Positions 23,601 to 29,600 of a stretch of 64,000 bases of DNA are shown one piece after another. The position numbers were made by a program. The number at the start of each line of letters is the position of its first letter. The stretch's first letter is position 1. The stretch is from an uncultured delta proteobacterium (GTDB taxonomy: Bacteria > Myxococcota_A > Polyangia > Palsa-1104). Location: positions 64,001-128,000 of the forward strand of contig CAWAWS010000014.1 of the NCBI GenBank assembly GCA_963785725.1, in the 5' to 3' direction.

Positions 23601-26600
23601 CAGCCCGATCACCGCGAATGGGGACGGCTGACGGCGGCCGAGGTCGGTCTCGCGCCCTTCCGTTGGCTCGTGCTCTCGATCGGCGTGCGTAAAGTCGCCT
23701 TCAGCTTCGGTCACGACGAGCCGGTGGAGATGTTGGAGCTGCCGGTGCGCCCCTATATTTCGCAGTCGGTGGCGCCCGATCGGCGGCTCGGCCTCACCAT
23801 CGACGACGACTTCGGCGTCGCCCACGTCGTCATCGGCCTCTACGAAGGCAACCGCGATCTCTCGATCACCACCCAAGGCGGCTTCCTGTTGGCGGCGCGC
23901 CTCGTCGCCGAGCCGCTCGGTCCCGTCGGCAACACGGTCTCGACGGTGTTCGACCCCGAGTATTGGCGGCCGCGACCGCGCTTCGCCTTCAACGCGTCGA
24001 TCTTGCTGCAATTCGCCGACGGCAACACCACTTACGCGCTGGCGGCCGACGGCGTCTTTCACTGGGGGCCGATCGGCCTCGCGGGCGAGTTCATCTACAG
24101 CTCGGGCACGACCGTGGAGGCGCCGACGCGCTTGGCGCTGCGGCCGGCGCCGCTGCGCGACGGCTTGTACATCGAGGCGGTGGCGATGCTGTGGCGTCCC
24201 TGGATCGAGCTGTCGGCGCGCTACGACTGGATGAACAACGCCGGACAGGCGGGGCAGCAGTTCCACGCCTTCACCGCCGGGGCGACGGTCTATGCGGTGA
24301 AGCAGTATTTGCGGCTGCAAGCGCTCTACACGCACAAGCTGCACTTCGACCTCTTGCCCAATCGCCCCGACATTCAAGACGACGTGCTCCTGTTCGCGGC
24401 GTCGCTGGCGCTCGAGAAGAACTTCTAACCGCGCGTAAGTGGCCGGCCGCCTAGGGGTCTGATAGCGTAAACGGTCGCGGCCAACCGGCCGAATGAGGAG
24501 GCCGTGGGCCACGTCGTCGGCATCGATCTCGGCACCACGAACTCGCTGTGCGCGTGCATGCGCGGCGAGCGGCCCGAGATCATCGTCAACGCGGCCGGGC
24601 AGCGGCTGACGCCGTCGGTGGTCGGGCTCGATCGCGCGGGCCGCTTGCACGTCGGCGAGTCGGCGCGGCATCAGCGGCTGGCGCTGCCGGAGCGGACGGC
24701 GGCCGAGTTCAAGCGGCTCATGGGCTCGACGACGAAGCTGCGGCTCGGCGACCGCGAATACTCGCCCGAGGAGCTGTCGGCGCTCGTGCTGCGGCAGCTC
24801 AAAGAGGACGCCGAGCGCCACTTGGGCGCGCCCGTCACCGAAGCCGTCATCACGGTGCCGGCCTACTTCACCGACGCGCAGCGCCGCGCGACGAAGGAGG
24901 CGGGCGAGCTGGCCGGCTTCGCCGTCGTCGAGCGCATCTTGAACGAGCCGACGGCGGCGGCGCTGGCCTACGGGCTCGATCACCTGGACGCCGAGCAGCT
25001 GGTCCTCGTCTACGACTTGGGCGGCGGCACGTTCGACGTCAGCGTGCTCGAGCTGTTCCAAGGCGTGCTCGACGTCAAGGCGGCGGCCGGGAACAACCAC
25101 CTCGGCGGCGGCGACTTCGATCGCCTCGTCGCCGAGTGGCTGGCGAGCGAGTTCGCGGCGGCGCACGGCGTCGACCTGCGCGGCGATCCGCTGGCGCTCC
25201 TGCGACTTCGCGTCGCCGCCGAGGAGGCGAAGCGCGAGCTGTCGACGCAGCTGTCGACGATCGTGCGCCTGCCGTTCGTGGCCGTGCGCGCGGGCGAGCC
25301 GCTGTCGCTGGAGCTGGAGCTGACGCGCGACCAGCTGGAGCAGCTCATCGGGCCGCTGGTGCGCTCGACGCTGCAGCCGCTGGCGCTGGCGCTGCGCGAC
25401 GCCAAGCTCGATCGCGGCCGCATCAGCGACATCGTGCTCGTCGGCGGCAGCGCGCGCATTCCGCTGGTGCGCCGGCTGCTCGGCGAATACTTCGGCAAGG
25501 AGCCGCGCGCGGGCGTGCATCCCGACGAAGCCATCGCGCTCGGCGCCGCCGTGCAAGCGGGCTTGAAAGCGGGCGCGACGTCGTCTGCCATCTCGGGCGC
25601 GCGCGGCATCATGATCACCGACGTCAGCCCGTTCACGCTCGGCGTCGAGGTCTCGTCGAGCCGCGCCGGCGGCATCTTCTCGCCCATTATCCCGCGCAAC
25701 TCGACGGTGCCGATCGCACGCACCGAGGTCTATTCGACGACCGCCGCCGACCAGCGCGTCGTCGACATCAAGGTCTACCAAGGCGAAGCGCGGCTGACGC
25801 GTGACAACACCTTGCTCGCCAGCTACAGCATCGACGGCATTCCGCCCGCGCCGGCTGGTCACGAGAAGGTCGCCATCACCTTCACCTACGACTTGAACGG
25901 CATCTTGAACGTGCGCACCAAGATCGTGTCGACGGGCAAAGAGGCGCAGCTCGTCGTCCTCGAGCCGGCGCGCGCGATGACGCAGGCGATGGCGCGGCAG
26001 CGGCTGGAGCGCGAGTGGGCGCCGAGCGACCGGGAGGCGGCGCTGCTCGAGGTGGTGCGTCGTCCCCGCCACTTCGACGCGCATTATCGGCTGGCCGAGG
26101 CGCACTTCGCGGCCGGCGACGACGCGGCGGCAATCGCAGCCGTGACGACGGCGCTGGCGCTCGGCGGCGACGGCGACGGCAACGCGCGGCGGCTCCTGGC
26201 GCGCGCCTACGATCGCGCCGGTCGCGCCGACGACGCCGAGCGCACGCTGCGCCAGCTCGTCGCCGGCGCGCCCGAAGACGCGGCGGCGCGCGACGACTTG
26301 GCGACGCACTTCGTGACCCGCGGCCGGCTCGACGACGCGCTGGTGCAGTTGGAAGAGGCGGCGCGGCTGGCGCCTGGCGACCCGCGCTGGCGGCGCCAGC
26401 TCGCCGAGCTCTACCGTCGCCAGCGTCTGCTGCCGCAAGCGCGCGCGGCGCTGGCCGCGGCGTTGACGTTGGCGCCCGACGACGCCGCCGTCGCGGCCGA
26501 GCTGCGCGCGTTCGTGCGCGAGGGCGCGGCCGACCCGACCGACGTCGCGCCGGCAATCGGCAAGCTGGGCGTGCTCGGCTGGAGCGCGGTCGGCGGCGCC

Positions 26601-29600
26601 GTGTCGCCGCTCGAAGCCGTAGCCGTCGCCGGTCGCGGCCAGCTCGTGTGCAGCGGCAACTTGGGCGCGCTCGGTCGCGAAGCGGCGATGGTGGCGTTCT
26701 CGTGCTTGAAGCTGCTGGCGTCGACGTGGCAGCTGGACGCGCGCATCGCCACGCATGACCTGCACTTGCACTTCGGCGACAGCGACATCGGCAAAGATGG
26801 TCCGTCGGCGGGCTTGGCGCTGTGGTTGGCGGCGGCGTCGGCGCTCATGCAGCGGCCGCTGCGGGCGCAGCTGGCGGCGACGGGCGAGCTGACGCTGCAC
26901 GGCGACGTCAAAGCGGTCGGCGGCGTGCACGAAAAGCTGGTCGCGGCGCGGCTGGCGGGTGTGCGCACGGTGCTGATGCCGCGGCGCAACGCCAACGCGC
27001 TCGGGAAGCTGCCGGCGGAAGTGACGGCCAAGCTCCAGATCGTGCTCGTCGACTCGGTCACGGAGGCGCTGGCGCACGCGCTGGCGTGACGGCGCGACGC
27101 GATGGCCGATCCGACGAGCTTCTACCAGATCTTGGGCGTGGCGCGCGACGCCGACGAGCGGGCGATCAAGACCGCCTACTTCACGCTGGTGCGCAAGCAT
27201 CCGCCGGAGACGCACGCCGTCGAGTTTCAGCGGCTGCGCGAGGCCTACGAGATCTTGTCCAACCCCGAGTCGCGCGCCGAATACGACGCCGTGCCGCAAT
27301 ACGACGCGCATGGCGCGCACGTCGCGGCCAAGCTGCAGGCGGCGACCGAGGCCATCGACGGCGGCGACTGGCCGCGCGCGCAGGCCGAGCTGACCGCCGT
27401 GCTCGACGAGAAGCCCGATCTGCACTTCGCGCGCGATCTATTGGGCATGGCGTTCTTGAACGCGCATCGGCCGGCGGACGCGATGCGCGAGTTCGCCCGC
27501 TTGACCAGCGAGCAGCCACACCATGCCGCCTATCGGCTGCATCAGGGTTACGCGCACTACGCGCAGAATCAGTATCCGCCGGCGCTCGACTGTTATCGCC
27601 AAGCGAGCGCGCTCGATCCGAGCGACGCGCGCGCGCTCGTCGCCAGCGCCGACTGTCTGGTGGCGCTCAAGCAGTACGAGCCGGCGCTGGCGGAGCTCGA
27701 TCGCGCCATCGCGCTCGATGTCACCGTCGATCTGCAGGACTTCGTGTTCCTCATGCGGCGCGTGCAGATTCAGCTCCTGCGCGGCCGCACCGACTTGGCC
27801 GACGCCGAGCTCGACCGCATCGCCGGCGCGCTGCCCGACGACGCCGAGACGCGGAAGTATGTCGCCACGCGGCTGGCCTCGCTGGCGTCGGATCTGTTCG
27901 CGCTCAAGCGCTCCGCCGACGCCAATCGCCTGCTGGCGCGCTGTCGGACGCTCGATCCGTCGCGTAAATCGATGGCCTACACGTTTCCGGCGCGCACGCG
28001 GCTCGGCATCGCGGCGCTGCCGCCGTCGTCGCGCGATTGGCTCGCCGAGCAGGCGCACACGCGGTCGCGCGGCCTATTGCGACAGAATGCCAAGGTCGCG
28101 CCGATCGTCTGGCTCGTCGTCGCGCTCGGGCTGCAGCTGCTGGCGCTGTCGTCGGCGTTCGACGGCGGCGAAGTGTGGAGCTGGCCGCGCAGCCTGGCGA
28201 TGCTGGCGCTGTTGCTGACGGCGCCGCTCGTGCTCGCGTGGTCGATCCGCCGGCTCGTGCACGTCATGCGCAGTCCTTACGGGCGCTATACGATCGTGCA
28301 TCCCTGTCACGTGCTGCAGGTCGACATCGACGACGTCACCGTGTGGCCGCTGGTGAATCTGCACGACGTGGCGCTGACCCATCAGACGTCGAACGGCAGC
28401 TATTCGCACACGCTTTGTAAGCTGAATTTCGCAGGCGCCAGCTGTCAGATCGTCGTGCGCGGGCAACAGCAGGCGATCGATTGGGCCGATGTCGTGCTCG
28501 AGCAGCGCCGCAAAGTGCTCGACCTGCTCGGCATGGGCCTGTTGGAAGCGGAGGAGGGGTTCGACATCGTGCCGCCGGCGCTGCTGCAGCCGTCGCCGCC
28601 GCACGCGTCGTCGCGGCCGGCCGGGCGTGAAGCCGCGCTCGCGTATGCGCTCGCCGTCGTCCTCGGCGCGGCGACGTTCGCGCTGGCGCTGAAGGTCAAC
28701 GGCGGCGCGCCCGAGCGGCAGGCGTGGCGCACCGTCGCCGACAGCGGCAACGCGGCGCGGCTGCGCGGCTACCTCGAGGCCTATCCCGACGGGCCGCACG
28801 GCGACGCGGCGCGCGCGGCGCTGCGTGCGGTCTACGCGCGGACGATCGTTCGGCTGCGCGAGTCGGCGCCGGGCCGGACGACGCTCGGCGGCGCGCTCGT
28901 CGCGGCGCTGGAGACGCTGGCGCGGCACGAGGGCGCGCCGGTGCGGCTCGTCGTCACGCCGACGATCGCGCTCGCCGGCGCCACGCAGCCGGGGCTGGTC
29001 GCGCCGGCGGCGGCGTTCGGCGACGCGGCGCTGCGCAATCGCGCGCTCATGCTGCGCGGCCGGCTGCGCGCGCTCTTGGCGGAGGTCGTCGGGCCGGGCA
29101 CGATCGAGCTCGGCCACGATGACGGAGACGACCGCCAGGGCGCGCCGCTGACGTTCGCGCTCGACTATGGCGTGCGGCCGACGGACGCGCTCTATCACAC
29201 GAAGTCGGGGCTGCCGCGGAGCTTCTGCGGGCTCGAATTCGCGTTCACGCTGACGATGACGGACGATCGCGGACGCGAGATCTACCGCCTGCAGCAGACG
29301 TCGCGGCAGTCGGTTACGGATGTCACGCGGCTGCCGGCGGTCGCCGAGGACGATCTGCTCGTCTACGACCGCATGATGCAAGCGGCGTTCGTCGAGCTGC
29401 TCGATCGGCTGCGCGTCGAGCTGCAGCTCCCGCGCTGAACGAGCCGCCTTCTACTCGCGCGGCGTCGCGAACTTGAGCGTCGGCGGGGATTGCGAGTCGA
29501 AGTTGGCTTCGATCGACTCGACCGAGATCACCGTCGTGCCTTCGCACTGCGGGCAATCCTCGATCCCATCCGTCGTCGCGGGCCGGGGCGGCTCGAACAG

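Follow-up and report, generated by a model that had tools for sequence, protein, structure and literature searches.

The 64,000-nt stretch of DNA analysed here (the window) carries a gene that joins what appears to be an HscC-like Hsp70 without its lid bundle to TPR repeats and a Lon peptidase domain, and behind it a gene for a membrane J-protein (Table 1). Several observations support a functional link among Hsp70, TPR-Lon and J-protein: the gene order is conserved, the parts co-occur almost without exception, fusion has happened repeatedly, and selection is purifying. Because the outward-facing parts of the J-protein are swapped between close relatives, the operon looks more like a sensor that triggers proteolytic cleavage than like machinery for general protein clearance. 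The gene set, carried by some myxobacteria, is apparently undescribed: like the earlier note on this DNA, our literature searches found no account of the operon.

Table 1. Features of the fused gene and the membrane J-protein gene (window positions).
Feature	Position	Strand	Remark
Fused Hsp70 (lid bundle missing)-TPR-Lon peptidase gene, 861 aa	24504..27089	+	one open frame
Hsp70 nucleotide-binding domain (NBD), aa 1-365	24504..25598	+	alignment
Linker (IMITDV), SBD-beta, helix A, first part of helix B; end ~aa 507	25599..26024	+	alignment
Hsp70/TPR fusion junction	26016..26076	+	bridged by independent contig
TPR block 1, aa ~515-670	26040..26513	+	homologous to stand-alone TPR-Lon aa 10-168
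LonA-type peptidase domain, aa 680-861	26541..27086	+	Ser768 codon 26805-26807, Lys811 codon 26934-26936
Membrane J-protein, 778 aa	27102..29438	+	model mean pLDDT 88
J domain	27120..27287	+	PPE at aa 34-36 (27201-27209) in HPD position
TPR solenoid, aa 72-284	27315..27953	+	predicted model
Predicted transmembrane hairpin, aa 330-354 and 364-383	28089..28250	+	hydropathy; model helices
PH-fold domain, aa 392-480, putatively cytoplasmic	28275..28541	+	structure comparison
Third predicted transmembrane helix, aa 510-534	28629..28703	+	hydropathy; model
Putative periplasmic region: helical part, then HpaA/LptE/CsgG-like alpha/beta fold, aa 613-777	28707..29435	+	

The fusion and its operon, first seen in the earlier note, are real. 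The gene is a single open frame with Pfam domains HSP70 (E 1e-163), TPR and Lon_C (680-860, E 3e-45). Both fusion junctions are spanned by contigs from an independent soil run, so that the fusion is no assembly artefact. The J-TPR gene begins 12 bp downstream. In line with the earlier note, Pfam matched no AAA family in the 861-aa chain; it matched no LON N-domain either. The Hsp70 is, however, not the full one that had been described: it ends near residue 507, and the linker and three-helix lid bundle of split relatives are missing, the junction standing where those relatives have an Ala/Pro linker, the lid bundle and a stop/start. TPR block 2 of the stand-alone TPR-Lon (about residues 170-350) is absent as well. 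Compared with same-genus relatives, the window operon shows 71-73% identity in the NBD and 64-66% in LonC; those relatives share 89-92% and 88-91% among themselves, and core flanking genes are mostly at 85-91%. Three parts are lost or eroded in the window's version: the lid, TPR block 2, and the periplasmic domain, which is down to 27-30%. The same fusion occurs in three distinct 90%-identity clusters (73-84% identity), whose reading frames are open and whose catalytic motifs are intact. The window seems to carry a derived version that is rare and evolves fast, its Hsp70 having become joined to the peptidase once the lid bundle and TPR block 2 were gone.

The ATPase and allostery motifs of the NBD are intact. 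A 24-aa deletion at DnaK 76-101 matches the gap in E. coli HscC, although passages of one paper describe it as common to many non-proteobacterial DnaKs (PMC8215388). Loop L1,2 of the SBD-beta carries an HscC-type insertion, 4-9 residues more than DnaK. The GrpE signature region is not deleted and aligns without gaps to the DnaK of the same genome, E. coli HscC being gapped nearby. The protein scores below the DnaK models (570 against a cut-off of 648 bits for NF001413; 566 against 823 for TIGR02350) and has no complete DnaK-type lid. Family Hsp70s are 37-41% identical to E. coli HscC and form a clade (96/90) separate from a second myxobacterial HscC/Djl-like group; the tree tentatively places them as sister to E. 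coli HscC plus the myxobacterial HscC/Djl-like clade, a position that carries a long-branch-joining warning, with HscC on a long branch. The positions matching DnaK R167, Q378 and P419, which touch the J-domain Pro and Asp according to parts of PMC8215388, are invariant in 55 rows. The conserved C-terminus, LTxxLF[ED]L, follows the strict pattern in 100 of 119 matches. We dropped the idea that it docks on TPR-Lon in an EEVD/CHIP-like manner because it persists in 4/4 Lon-less genomes. A predicted complex between a 595-aa split Hsp70 and the 350-aa TPR region scored 0.14 against a mark of 0.32, a value that we count neither for nor against contact.

The Ser-Lys dyad motifs previously recognised in the Lon domain stand (KDGPSAG, Ser768; HEKL, Lys811), and the two residues lie 43 apart. 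Both are invariant in 126/126 family sequences (an alignment of 128 rows less two non-family rows), and the flanking K and G as well as TGE and GxxEK are strongly conserved across the family. The best solved-structure matches are bacterial LonA (E 5e-36), and the domain, nearest to LonA P-domains, keeps the L[AG]W strand. In the tree the family splits from canonical Lon (SH-aLRT 99), and the protein reaches 148 bits against the cut-off of 608 for endopeptidase La (TIGR00763). Among the best 120 of 145 matches, 94 were family proteins, none with an AAA match or Walker A, which agrees with the roughly 90 AAA-less TPR-Lon_C proteins counted before; 25 of the 26 non-family proteins did have AAA matches. 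Catalytic competence is supported, as far as sequence can speak for it.

The description of the downstream product as a DnaJ-TPR membrane protein survives in part. It has a J domain (PF00226, 54 bits, cut-off 27.8; helical pattern in the model), TPRs and predicted transmembrane helices, but PPE or SPE replaces HPD, and PH and periplasmic folds are added. Among 38 family J domains the HPD position reads PPE in 29, SPE in eight and PPD in one, while DjlB and DjlC have HPE in the same register. J domains without the HPD His are thought, in passages of PMC13254874, to be unable to stimulate Hsp70. The PH region resembles many PH/FERM/PTB domains (VIA Z 8.0-8.9, rmsd 2.5-3.8, 72-86 residues), and the periplasmic fold resembles HpaA (VIA Z 9.7, rmsd 4.4, 143 aligned; Foldseek E 3e-4). 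A Foldseek search with the whole model was dominated by TPR proteins, and in an Atlas search the TM-PH region gave matches below 0.9 only.

The order Hsp70, TPR-Lon, J was found in 17 of 20 named Myxococcota-type loci (two others are cut by contig ends and one is a true exception), bearing out the three-part operon reported in relatives. We reproduced the strong TPR-Lon_C match in nine of the 42 genomes of the order, the window's own among them, but the family extends beyond that order, with matches in 27 of the 201 genomes sampled from the order of Corallococcus. A strong Hsp70 match accompanies 26 of these 27, and the last has a frameshifted copy. A phylum search matched 2 of 401 genomes, own included, which is a floor because only three candidates were scored per genome; in the profile search of 50% representatives, long TPR proteins took up much of the list, and remoter members may rank below its top 150. 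The peptidase is not obligatory, since in four genomes of the order the Hsp70 occurs but TPR-Lon does not; in three of these a J gene is adjacent. These Lon-less Hsp70s form one nested clade (99/100), with the lid tail kept, that lost TPR-Lon but retained Hsp70, along with J wherever the contig extends far enough to tell.

The fused form is rare, being known in five proteins. Their grouping as a single clade is rejected (p-AU 0.016, non-mixture model), and fusion arose at least twice. The 856-aa fused protein, formerly taken as an independent case, falls in the window's clade and is not one. Three independent fusions were not established, two sub-tests being non-significant (p-AU 0.25 and 0.12). 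Scans found no fused form in metagenome contigs and no TPR-Lon family member in viral contigs; plasmids gave P-domain matches only, with 0 of 57 records covering 80%.

We compared identities in 14 close Corallococcus-like genomes (91 pairs). Mean identity is high in the core (NBD 96.9%, SBD-beta 97.9%, LonC 95.2%, J 94.7%) and low in the variable parts (TM 63%, PH 76%, periplasmic 70%), which include a linked gene, often in the locus, for a membrane-anchored periplasmic TPR protein (gene 4; N 60%, C 66%). Measured against the reference, four flanking control genes, three of them secreted/membrane, show 83-98% identity across the same 13 genomes. The TM, PH, periplasmic part and gene-4 N covary (Spearman 0.72-0.86), compared with 0.13-0.41 between variable parts and core, and when trees of the core and of the variable parts were tested for one another's clades, six of eight tests gave rejection (p-AU < 1e-3). 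Omega is 0.046 for the Lon domain, 0.046 for J and 0.020 for the NBD; it stays below 0.3 in the variable parts, which shows allele exchange and not positive selection. Nei-Gojobori ratios at deep divergence are unreliable (GC3 near 0.9) and were left out of our conclusions. The membrane/periplasmic half and gene 4 are swapped as a block between close relatives, and in its features the J-protein resembles a transmembrane receptor that is polymorphic. Strong polymorphism was seen in one genus-level group only. In the window's genus the periplasmic part, 70-74% identical among split relatives, is no more variable than nearby envelope genes (56-67% between the window and its split same-genus relatives). 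An apparent J/gene-4 fusion in one locus (L164) is a broken-frame artefact, gene 4 having its own start.

In the window's family the locus is syntenic with housekeeping genes. We found no conserved linked substrate gene. We considered whether an upstream ECF sigma gene might be a target resembling CalpS, but its linkage is restricted to the window's family, and the idea is therefore unsupported. Six of 136 neighbours match PADLOC at E <= 1e-10, mostly generic folds, and the J-protein has no PADLOC 2.0 match; the neighbours do not form a defence island, and the locus would not count as a known PADLOC 2.0 anti-phage system, although an undescribed one is possible. Promoter and terminator scans stayed at chance level.

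The reading we put first, at about an even chance, is a polymorphic trans-envelope recognition module that gates limited proteolysis via Hsp70. Judging by its topology, its folds and its polymorphism, the J-protein of the inner membrane, in many loci together with gene 4, might recognise something at the envelope, for instance part of a phage, a component of a rival or kin cell, or a toxin used in attack. The signal could then expose or cluster the cytoplasmic J(PPE)-TPR-PH part, which would recruit only the co-encoded HscC-like Hsp70. A single Hsp70 binding cycle might free TPR-Lon from autoinhibition or cluster it; alternatively, Hsp70 could locally loosen one client. The Lon domain would finally cut once or a few times, non-processively. 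There is a precedent in CalpL, an AAA-less Lon that ligand-driven filament formation activates and that cuts one target (bioRxiv 2024.05.08.593097). More specifically, the module may be an undescribed bacterial immune or kin-recognition pathway, running from an allele-swapped receptor over a His-less J and a private Hsp70 as ATP-driven switch to a Lon-derived executioner, with the fused protein as a natural chaperone-protease hybrid enzyme, which is conceivable but doubtful. Against gated proteolysis speak the absent His of HPD, the dispensable peptidase, an omega below 0.3 in the variable parts, strong polymorphism in a single genus-level group, the unremarkable periplasmic variability in the window's genus, a window locus without gene 4, the missing substrate gene and defence island, and the housekeeping synteny.

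The earlier note had proposed that an Hsp70/DnaJ pair replaces the AAA+ unfoldase. Its three-part functional link stands, but the His-less J, the lost lid, the Lon-less clade and the receptor-like J-protein make this a weaker rival to the gated receptor, and we consider it unlikely. Here Hsp70 would unfold or hold clients chosen by the membrane J and pass them to Lon to be degraded completely, as in a bacterial Hsp70-CHIP triage. Recurrent Hsp70-peptidase fusion and the LonA-like peptidase fit this. To our knowledge, however, Hsp70 is not a pore translocase, and the genome already has three LonA-type matches (795-892-aa frames); a His-less J with an exchanged envelope half fits specific recognition better than housekeeping, and one clade lost the peptidase. 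In favour of feeding, a lid-less Hsp70 would release clients faster, and HscC/DjlC were suggested to act on membrane proteins, going by passages of PMC8215388. CalpL, an AAA-less Lon, is a signal-gated site-specific cutter and no degradation machine (bioRxiv 2024.05.08.593097).

Rather improbable, too, is that Hsp70 and membrane J are the working unit, one that assembles, takes apart or chaperones an envelope complex, HscC/DjlC-like, with the peptidase as accessory trimmer and the window fusion as a streamlined or slowly decaying allele. The Lon-less clade with its lid tail, the window operon's divergence from its relatives beside well-conserved flanks, and its lost or eroded parts would suit this reading, but the three clusters sharing the fusion with intact motifs do not, and the peptidase adjoins in the great majority of loci, in several families and under strong purifying selection. 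Lon domains also serve as non-catalytic oligomerising scaffolds in RadA/Sms and ComM. Weak RadA and ChlI family matches hint at such a role here; against the invariant Ser and Lys and the conserved motifs around them, we regard it as very improbable.

HscC-like Hsp70s and HPD-less J-proteins are described in passages of PMC8215388 and PMC13254874 as being without an established mechanism. The operon offers both a measurable output, the predicted Ser-dependent cut, and it is present in cultured Corallococcus strains, where natural receptor alleles could be swapped. If Hsp70 does gate or feed a Lon peptidase directly, this would be a route of regulated proteolysis that bypasses AAA+ motors, with Hsp70 as a transmembrane signal transducer in bacteria.

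Among known systems, E. coli HscC with DjlB/DjlC shares, by the passages cited (PMC8215388), a specialised Hsp70 with the 76-101 deletion and L1,2 insertion and a co-encoded class C J-protein that is anchored in the membrane and has a motif ending in PE. In contrast, the present Hsp70s form their own clade with a GrpE-signature region of DnaK length, the J motif is PPE/SPE and not HPE, three TM helices with PH and periplasmic domains replace a tail anchor, and no peptidase gene is annotated at the E. coli HscC locus. LonA shares the P-domain with KDGPSAG and the dyad spacing, but has the LON N-domain and AAA+ module, and VPxGATP where the loop before the catalytic Ser here reads F-x-D-[TS]-[ED]. 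CalpL (SAVED-Lon, type III CRISPR) likewise joins an AAA+-less Lon domain to a sensing module for a gated site-specific cut, as parts of bioRxiv 2024.05.08.593097 describe; here there is no SAVED/CARF domain (CARF_LON match marginal, E 0.009), CRISPR context (no Cas model among 136 neighbours) or conserved anti-sigma/sigma pair, the partners being Hsp70 and a membrane J-protein. PDZ-Lon_C (SepM/YlbL type) and other AAA-less S16 proteins also have Lon_C without ATPase, but a different accessory domain; the SepM family matches the fused protein at E 4e-5, and the main text of the survey that lists such proteins names neither TPR nor Hsp70 (PMC2605481). Hsp70 conflict systems with GAP1-N2 and DO-GTPase (Kaur et al., 2020; PMC7159879) similarly use Hsp70 and J/TPR as NTP-dependent switches in multicellular bacteria, but these loci have no GTPase, tubulin, GrpE or FNIII partner, and the passages cited mention no Lon-domain component. 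The BREX BrxL model matches the P-domain only (57 bits, cut-off 628), there being neither an AAA+ LonB-like protein in a brx locus nor any brx gene among the 136 neighbours. In eukaryotic Hsp70-CHIP triage, too, a TPR protein links Hsp70 to proteolysis, whereas here the TPR protein itself is the peptidase.

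The fusion gene of the window belongs to an operon with an exchangeable, putative receptor half, which is our main finding. The system is real and coherent and seems to be undescribed. No published description of the operon or the fusion was found; the supplements of PMC8265645 and PMC10410713 could list such proteins.

The fusion protein matches HSP70 (E 1e-163), TPR and, at residues 680-860, Lon_C (E 3e-45), with no Pfam match to an AAA family, and the neighboring J-protein matches DnaJ and TPR. The GC content of the region is like that of the remainder of the window. An earlier note had described an Hsp70-TPR-Lon fusion without AAA+ module, and it is real, because an independent soil run supplies two contigs, ~90% identical, that bridge its junctions, one of them spanning Hsp70/TPR without gaps and the other TPR/Lon. 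The Ser-Lys dyad motifs that the note had reported are likewise present, with Ser768 (in KDGPSAG) and Lys811 (in HEKL) spaced by 43 residues; the Lon catalytic dyad is S679/K722 (PMC2605481). The note's "full Hsp70" was wrong, because the Hsp70 part stops at about residue 507 and lacks the lid bundle, as do the protein hits P0004, P0093 and P0292. The Hsp70s of the split relatives are 580-600 aa long and end in an Ala/Pro linker and a short helical bundle with LTxxLF[ED]L. TPR block 2 of the stand-alone TPR-Lon is also absent from the window fusion.

Coordinates of the operon genes, the fusion junctions and associated genes
Feature	Locus	Position	Strand	Remark
Hsp70-TPR-Lon_C fusion gene	window	24504-27089	+	single 861-aa frame
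J-protein gene	window	27102-29438	+	778-aa frame, starting 12 bp after the fusion gene
Contig span across the Hsp70/TPR junction	window	25879-26224
Contig span across the TPR/Lon junction	window	26388-26666
ECF sigma factor gene	window	22450-23211	+	1.3 kb upstream
TY-Chap1 gene	window	32603-33091	-	CesT/YbjN-like
Gene 4	L055	13896-15689	+	also L049, L051-L054, L056-L061, L164-L166
Gene 5	L054	7696-8190	+	two-TM gene 5' of Hsp70
Gene 5	L164	12944-13414		two-TM gene 5' of Hsp70
Gene 5	L165	6931-7383		two-TM gene 5' of Hsp70
Zinc-finger/TPR gene	L155	5485-6138	-	218 aa
AAA_33 kinase-like and Thg1-like genes	L054	5418-6618	+	upstream of operon in Corallococcus

In sequence alignments, the ATPase and allostery motifs of the operon Hsp70 are all intact. 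It shares with E. coli HscC the deletion of DnaK 76-101 and the L1,2 insertion, both listed for HscC in PMC8215388. In the GrpE-signature region, however, it is as long as DnaK, and its identity to HscC is only 37-41%; it qualifies as an HscC in part. In a tree with unsure deeper joins and long branches, the operon Hsp70s form their own clade (96/90), separate from E. coli HscC and from a second myxobacterial HscC/Djl-like group. The latter (Myxococcales loci L158-L161 and L169) is 45-46% identical to the operon Hsp70; its J gene precedes the Hsp70 gene, the two motifs seen are KPE and SPE, and no Lon domain lies nearby. Each part of the operon is of a known kind, but none belongs with LonA, DnaK, canonical J-proteins, CalpL or BrxL.

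A search with fusion residues 500-861 returned 145 hits; among the best 120, 94 are TPR-Lon_C proteins, of which three carry Hsp70 sequence and none shows a Walker A or a match to AAA. A further 32 family representatives, including the partial fusion P0292, came from a profile search, and the catalytic Ser and Lys are kept in every one of the 128 aligned rows, 126 from the family and 2 from outside it. Among the profile hits, P0291 and P0306 have tandem or duplicated Lon P-domains, possibly as assembly artefacts. The GTDB scan gave 80 loci, with the family peptidase in 20 (L042-L061) and its N-terminus in one more, all from Myxococcota or uncultured delta proteobacteria by record title; the remaining loci match the P-domain only. 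As the earlier note had claimed, the gene order Hsp70, TPR-Lon, J-protein is conserved (17 of the 20 loci), the exceptions being two loci truncated by contig ends and L051, where Hsp70 lies on another contig. Hsp70 is frameshifted in two of the 20, and the L058, L059 and L164 assemblies have several frameshifts within operon genes, through assembly error or decay. The peptidase is borne by 9 of the 42 genomes from the window's own order and by 27 of the 201 in the Corallococcus order sample; a low-sensitivity search of a phylum sample met it in 2 of 401. The operon Hsp70 has a strong match in 26 genomes of the Corallococcus order sample, all of them among the 27 with the peptidase. The distribution is patchy and, within the searched data, myxobacterial.

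The window fusion groups with P0003 and P0004 in a single clade, which is embedded in the split forms. A single clade for all five fused proteins is rejected (p-AU 0.016) and two sub-tests are not significant; we therefore conclude on at least two fusion origins, not on one per protein. All three fused clusters have open frames with intact catalytic motifs, and the fusion, a rare and derived allele, points to a link between Hsp70 and peptidase. The window operon has evolved fast at a conserved locus: it is 71-73% (NBD) and 64-66% (LonC) identical to same-genus relatives, whereas these share 89-92% and 88-91% among themselves and core flanking genes mostly 85-91%. Such rates fit either functional change or relaxed constraint. 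Within the window's order, the operon Hsp70 was matched in 12 of 42 genomes, four of which have no TPR-Lon and match the family profile in the P-domain only. In three of these four J adjoins Hsp70, and the fourth ends at a contig end; in one of the three (L155), a zinc-finger/TPR gene occupies the TPR-Lon slot, and its product weakly matches the family profile over TPR block 2 (E 1e-7 in a single-sequence search). The Lon-less Hsp70s are a single clade (99/100) within the Lon-bearing ones, therefore one secondary loss, and the peptidase is optional for the operon Hsp70.

At the HPD position, all 38 operon J domains have PPE, SPE or PPD, whereas DjlB and DjlC have HPE in the same register. A review, PMC13254874, names HPE as the sole tolerated change and presumes pseudo-J proteins to be non-stimulating. 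Against such a status stand the strong purifying selection on the operon J domain (omega 0.046) and the invariance, in the operon Hsp70, of the equivalents of R167, Q378 and P419, DnaK residues in contact with Pro and Asp in the J-domain motif (PMC8215388). Modelling (mean pLDDT 88) and hydropathy suggest a layout of J, TPR, TM hairpin, beta domain, TM and C-terminal domain, from which a membrane topology can be predicted. The beta domain modelled alone (pLDDT 81.6) matches PH folds (Z 8.0-8.9), and the C-terminal domain model matches HpaA (Z 9.7, rmsd 4.4, 143 aligned), moderate values that indicate fold, not function; the latter model also matches LptE/CsgG/PelC-like periplasmic proteins.

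Gene 4, absent from the window's genome, encodes a ~590-aa TPR protein with an N-terminal TM anchor and a beta-rich N-domain, and adjoins the J gene in 11 of the 20 named loci (convergently in one). The Atlas search places a Myxococcota TPR cluster first (0.97), and Planctomycetota look-alikes score 0.90. Gene 5, also absent from that genome, encodes a 150-165-aa protein whose N-terminus is conserved and which might serve as substrate or partner; it lies upstream of Hsp70, on the same strand in Corallococcus and divergently in a few others.

As reference locus we took L054 (Corallococcus coralloides). Of 19 further loci, 13 have an NBD that matches it with 94% identity or more and were compared with it and with one another (91 pairs); the six more distant loci do not enter the means. 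Mean identities are higher in NBD (96.9), SBD-beta (97.9), LonC (95.2), J (94.7) and J-TPR (86%) than in TM (63), PH (76), the periplasmic part (70) and the strongly varying gene 4 (60 N, 66 C). In the same 13 genomes, four flanking controls (a secreted M1 peptidase, a lipoprotein-like protein, a GYF/zinc-ribbon membrane protein and FtsY) are 83-98% identical to L054. TM, PH, the periplasmic part and gene-4 N vary in concert, with rho 0.72-0.86, and their variation is uncoupled from that of the cytoplasmic core (0.13-0.41). The core tree rejects two of four variable-part groupings (p-AU 3e-5 and 4e-5; the other two not significant), and both variable-part trees reject both tested core clades. 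Omega in the variable parts is 0.16-0.26, and we therefore read the pattern as exchange of old alleles rather than as shown positive selection, within a sample of one genus-level group, four controls and related genomes. Among split relatives in the window's genus, the periplasmic part (70-74%) varies no more than nearby envelope genes do.

The anatomy proposed from sequence joins a variable, putatively envelope-facing part to a conserved J-TPR in the cytoplasm, a dedicated Hsp70 and a motor-less peptidase with intact catalytic residues. The variable part would recognize something at the envelope, Hsp70 would then be recruited, and limited proteolysis by the Lon domain would be switched on; we give this course about an even chance. 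CalpL, an AAA-less Lon, operates in this manner with a different sensor (bioRxiv 2024.05.08.593097).

The earlier note suggested that the Lon peptidase may be fed by an Hsp70/DnaJ pair in place of an AAA+ unfoldase. Full degradation of clients fed by Hsp70 seems unlikely, as Hsp70 is not a pore translocase and three other LonA-type genes are already in the genome. The peptidase might also be an accessory beside a self-sufficient Hsp70/J pair, for which the clade with Hsp70 and no Lon and the eroded window allele speak; we hold this to be rather improbable.

The operon locus is not a mobile defence island. PADLOC hits at E 1e-10 or better concern 6 of 136 neighbor proteins from 18 loci (two kinases, a methyltransferase, a sigma-54 activator, a metallophosphoesterase and one candidate model), and scans of viral contigs and plasmids found no copy of the system. 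The flanking genes, mostly housekeeping, are syntenic inside the window's family and inside Corallococcus. In the window's family, a TY-Chap1 peptide-binding chaperone gene is syntenic with the operon; the gene for an ECF sigma factor with a ~90-aa C-terminal extension is so in that family only.
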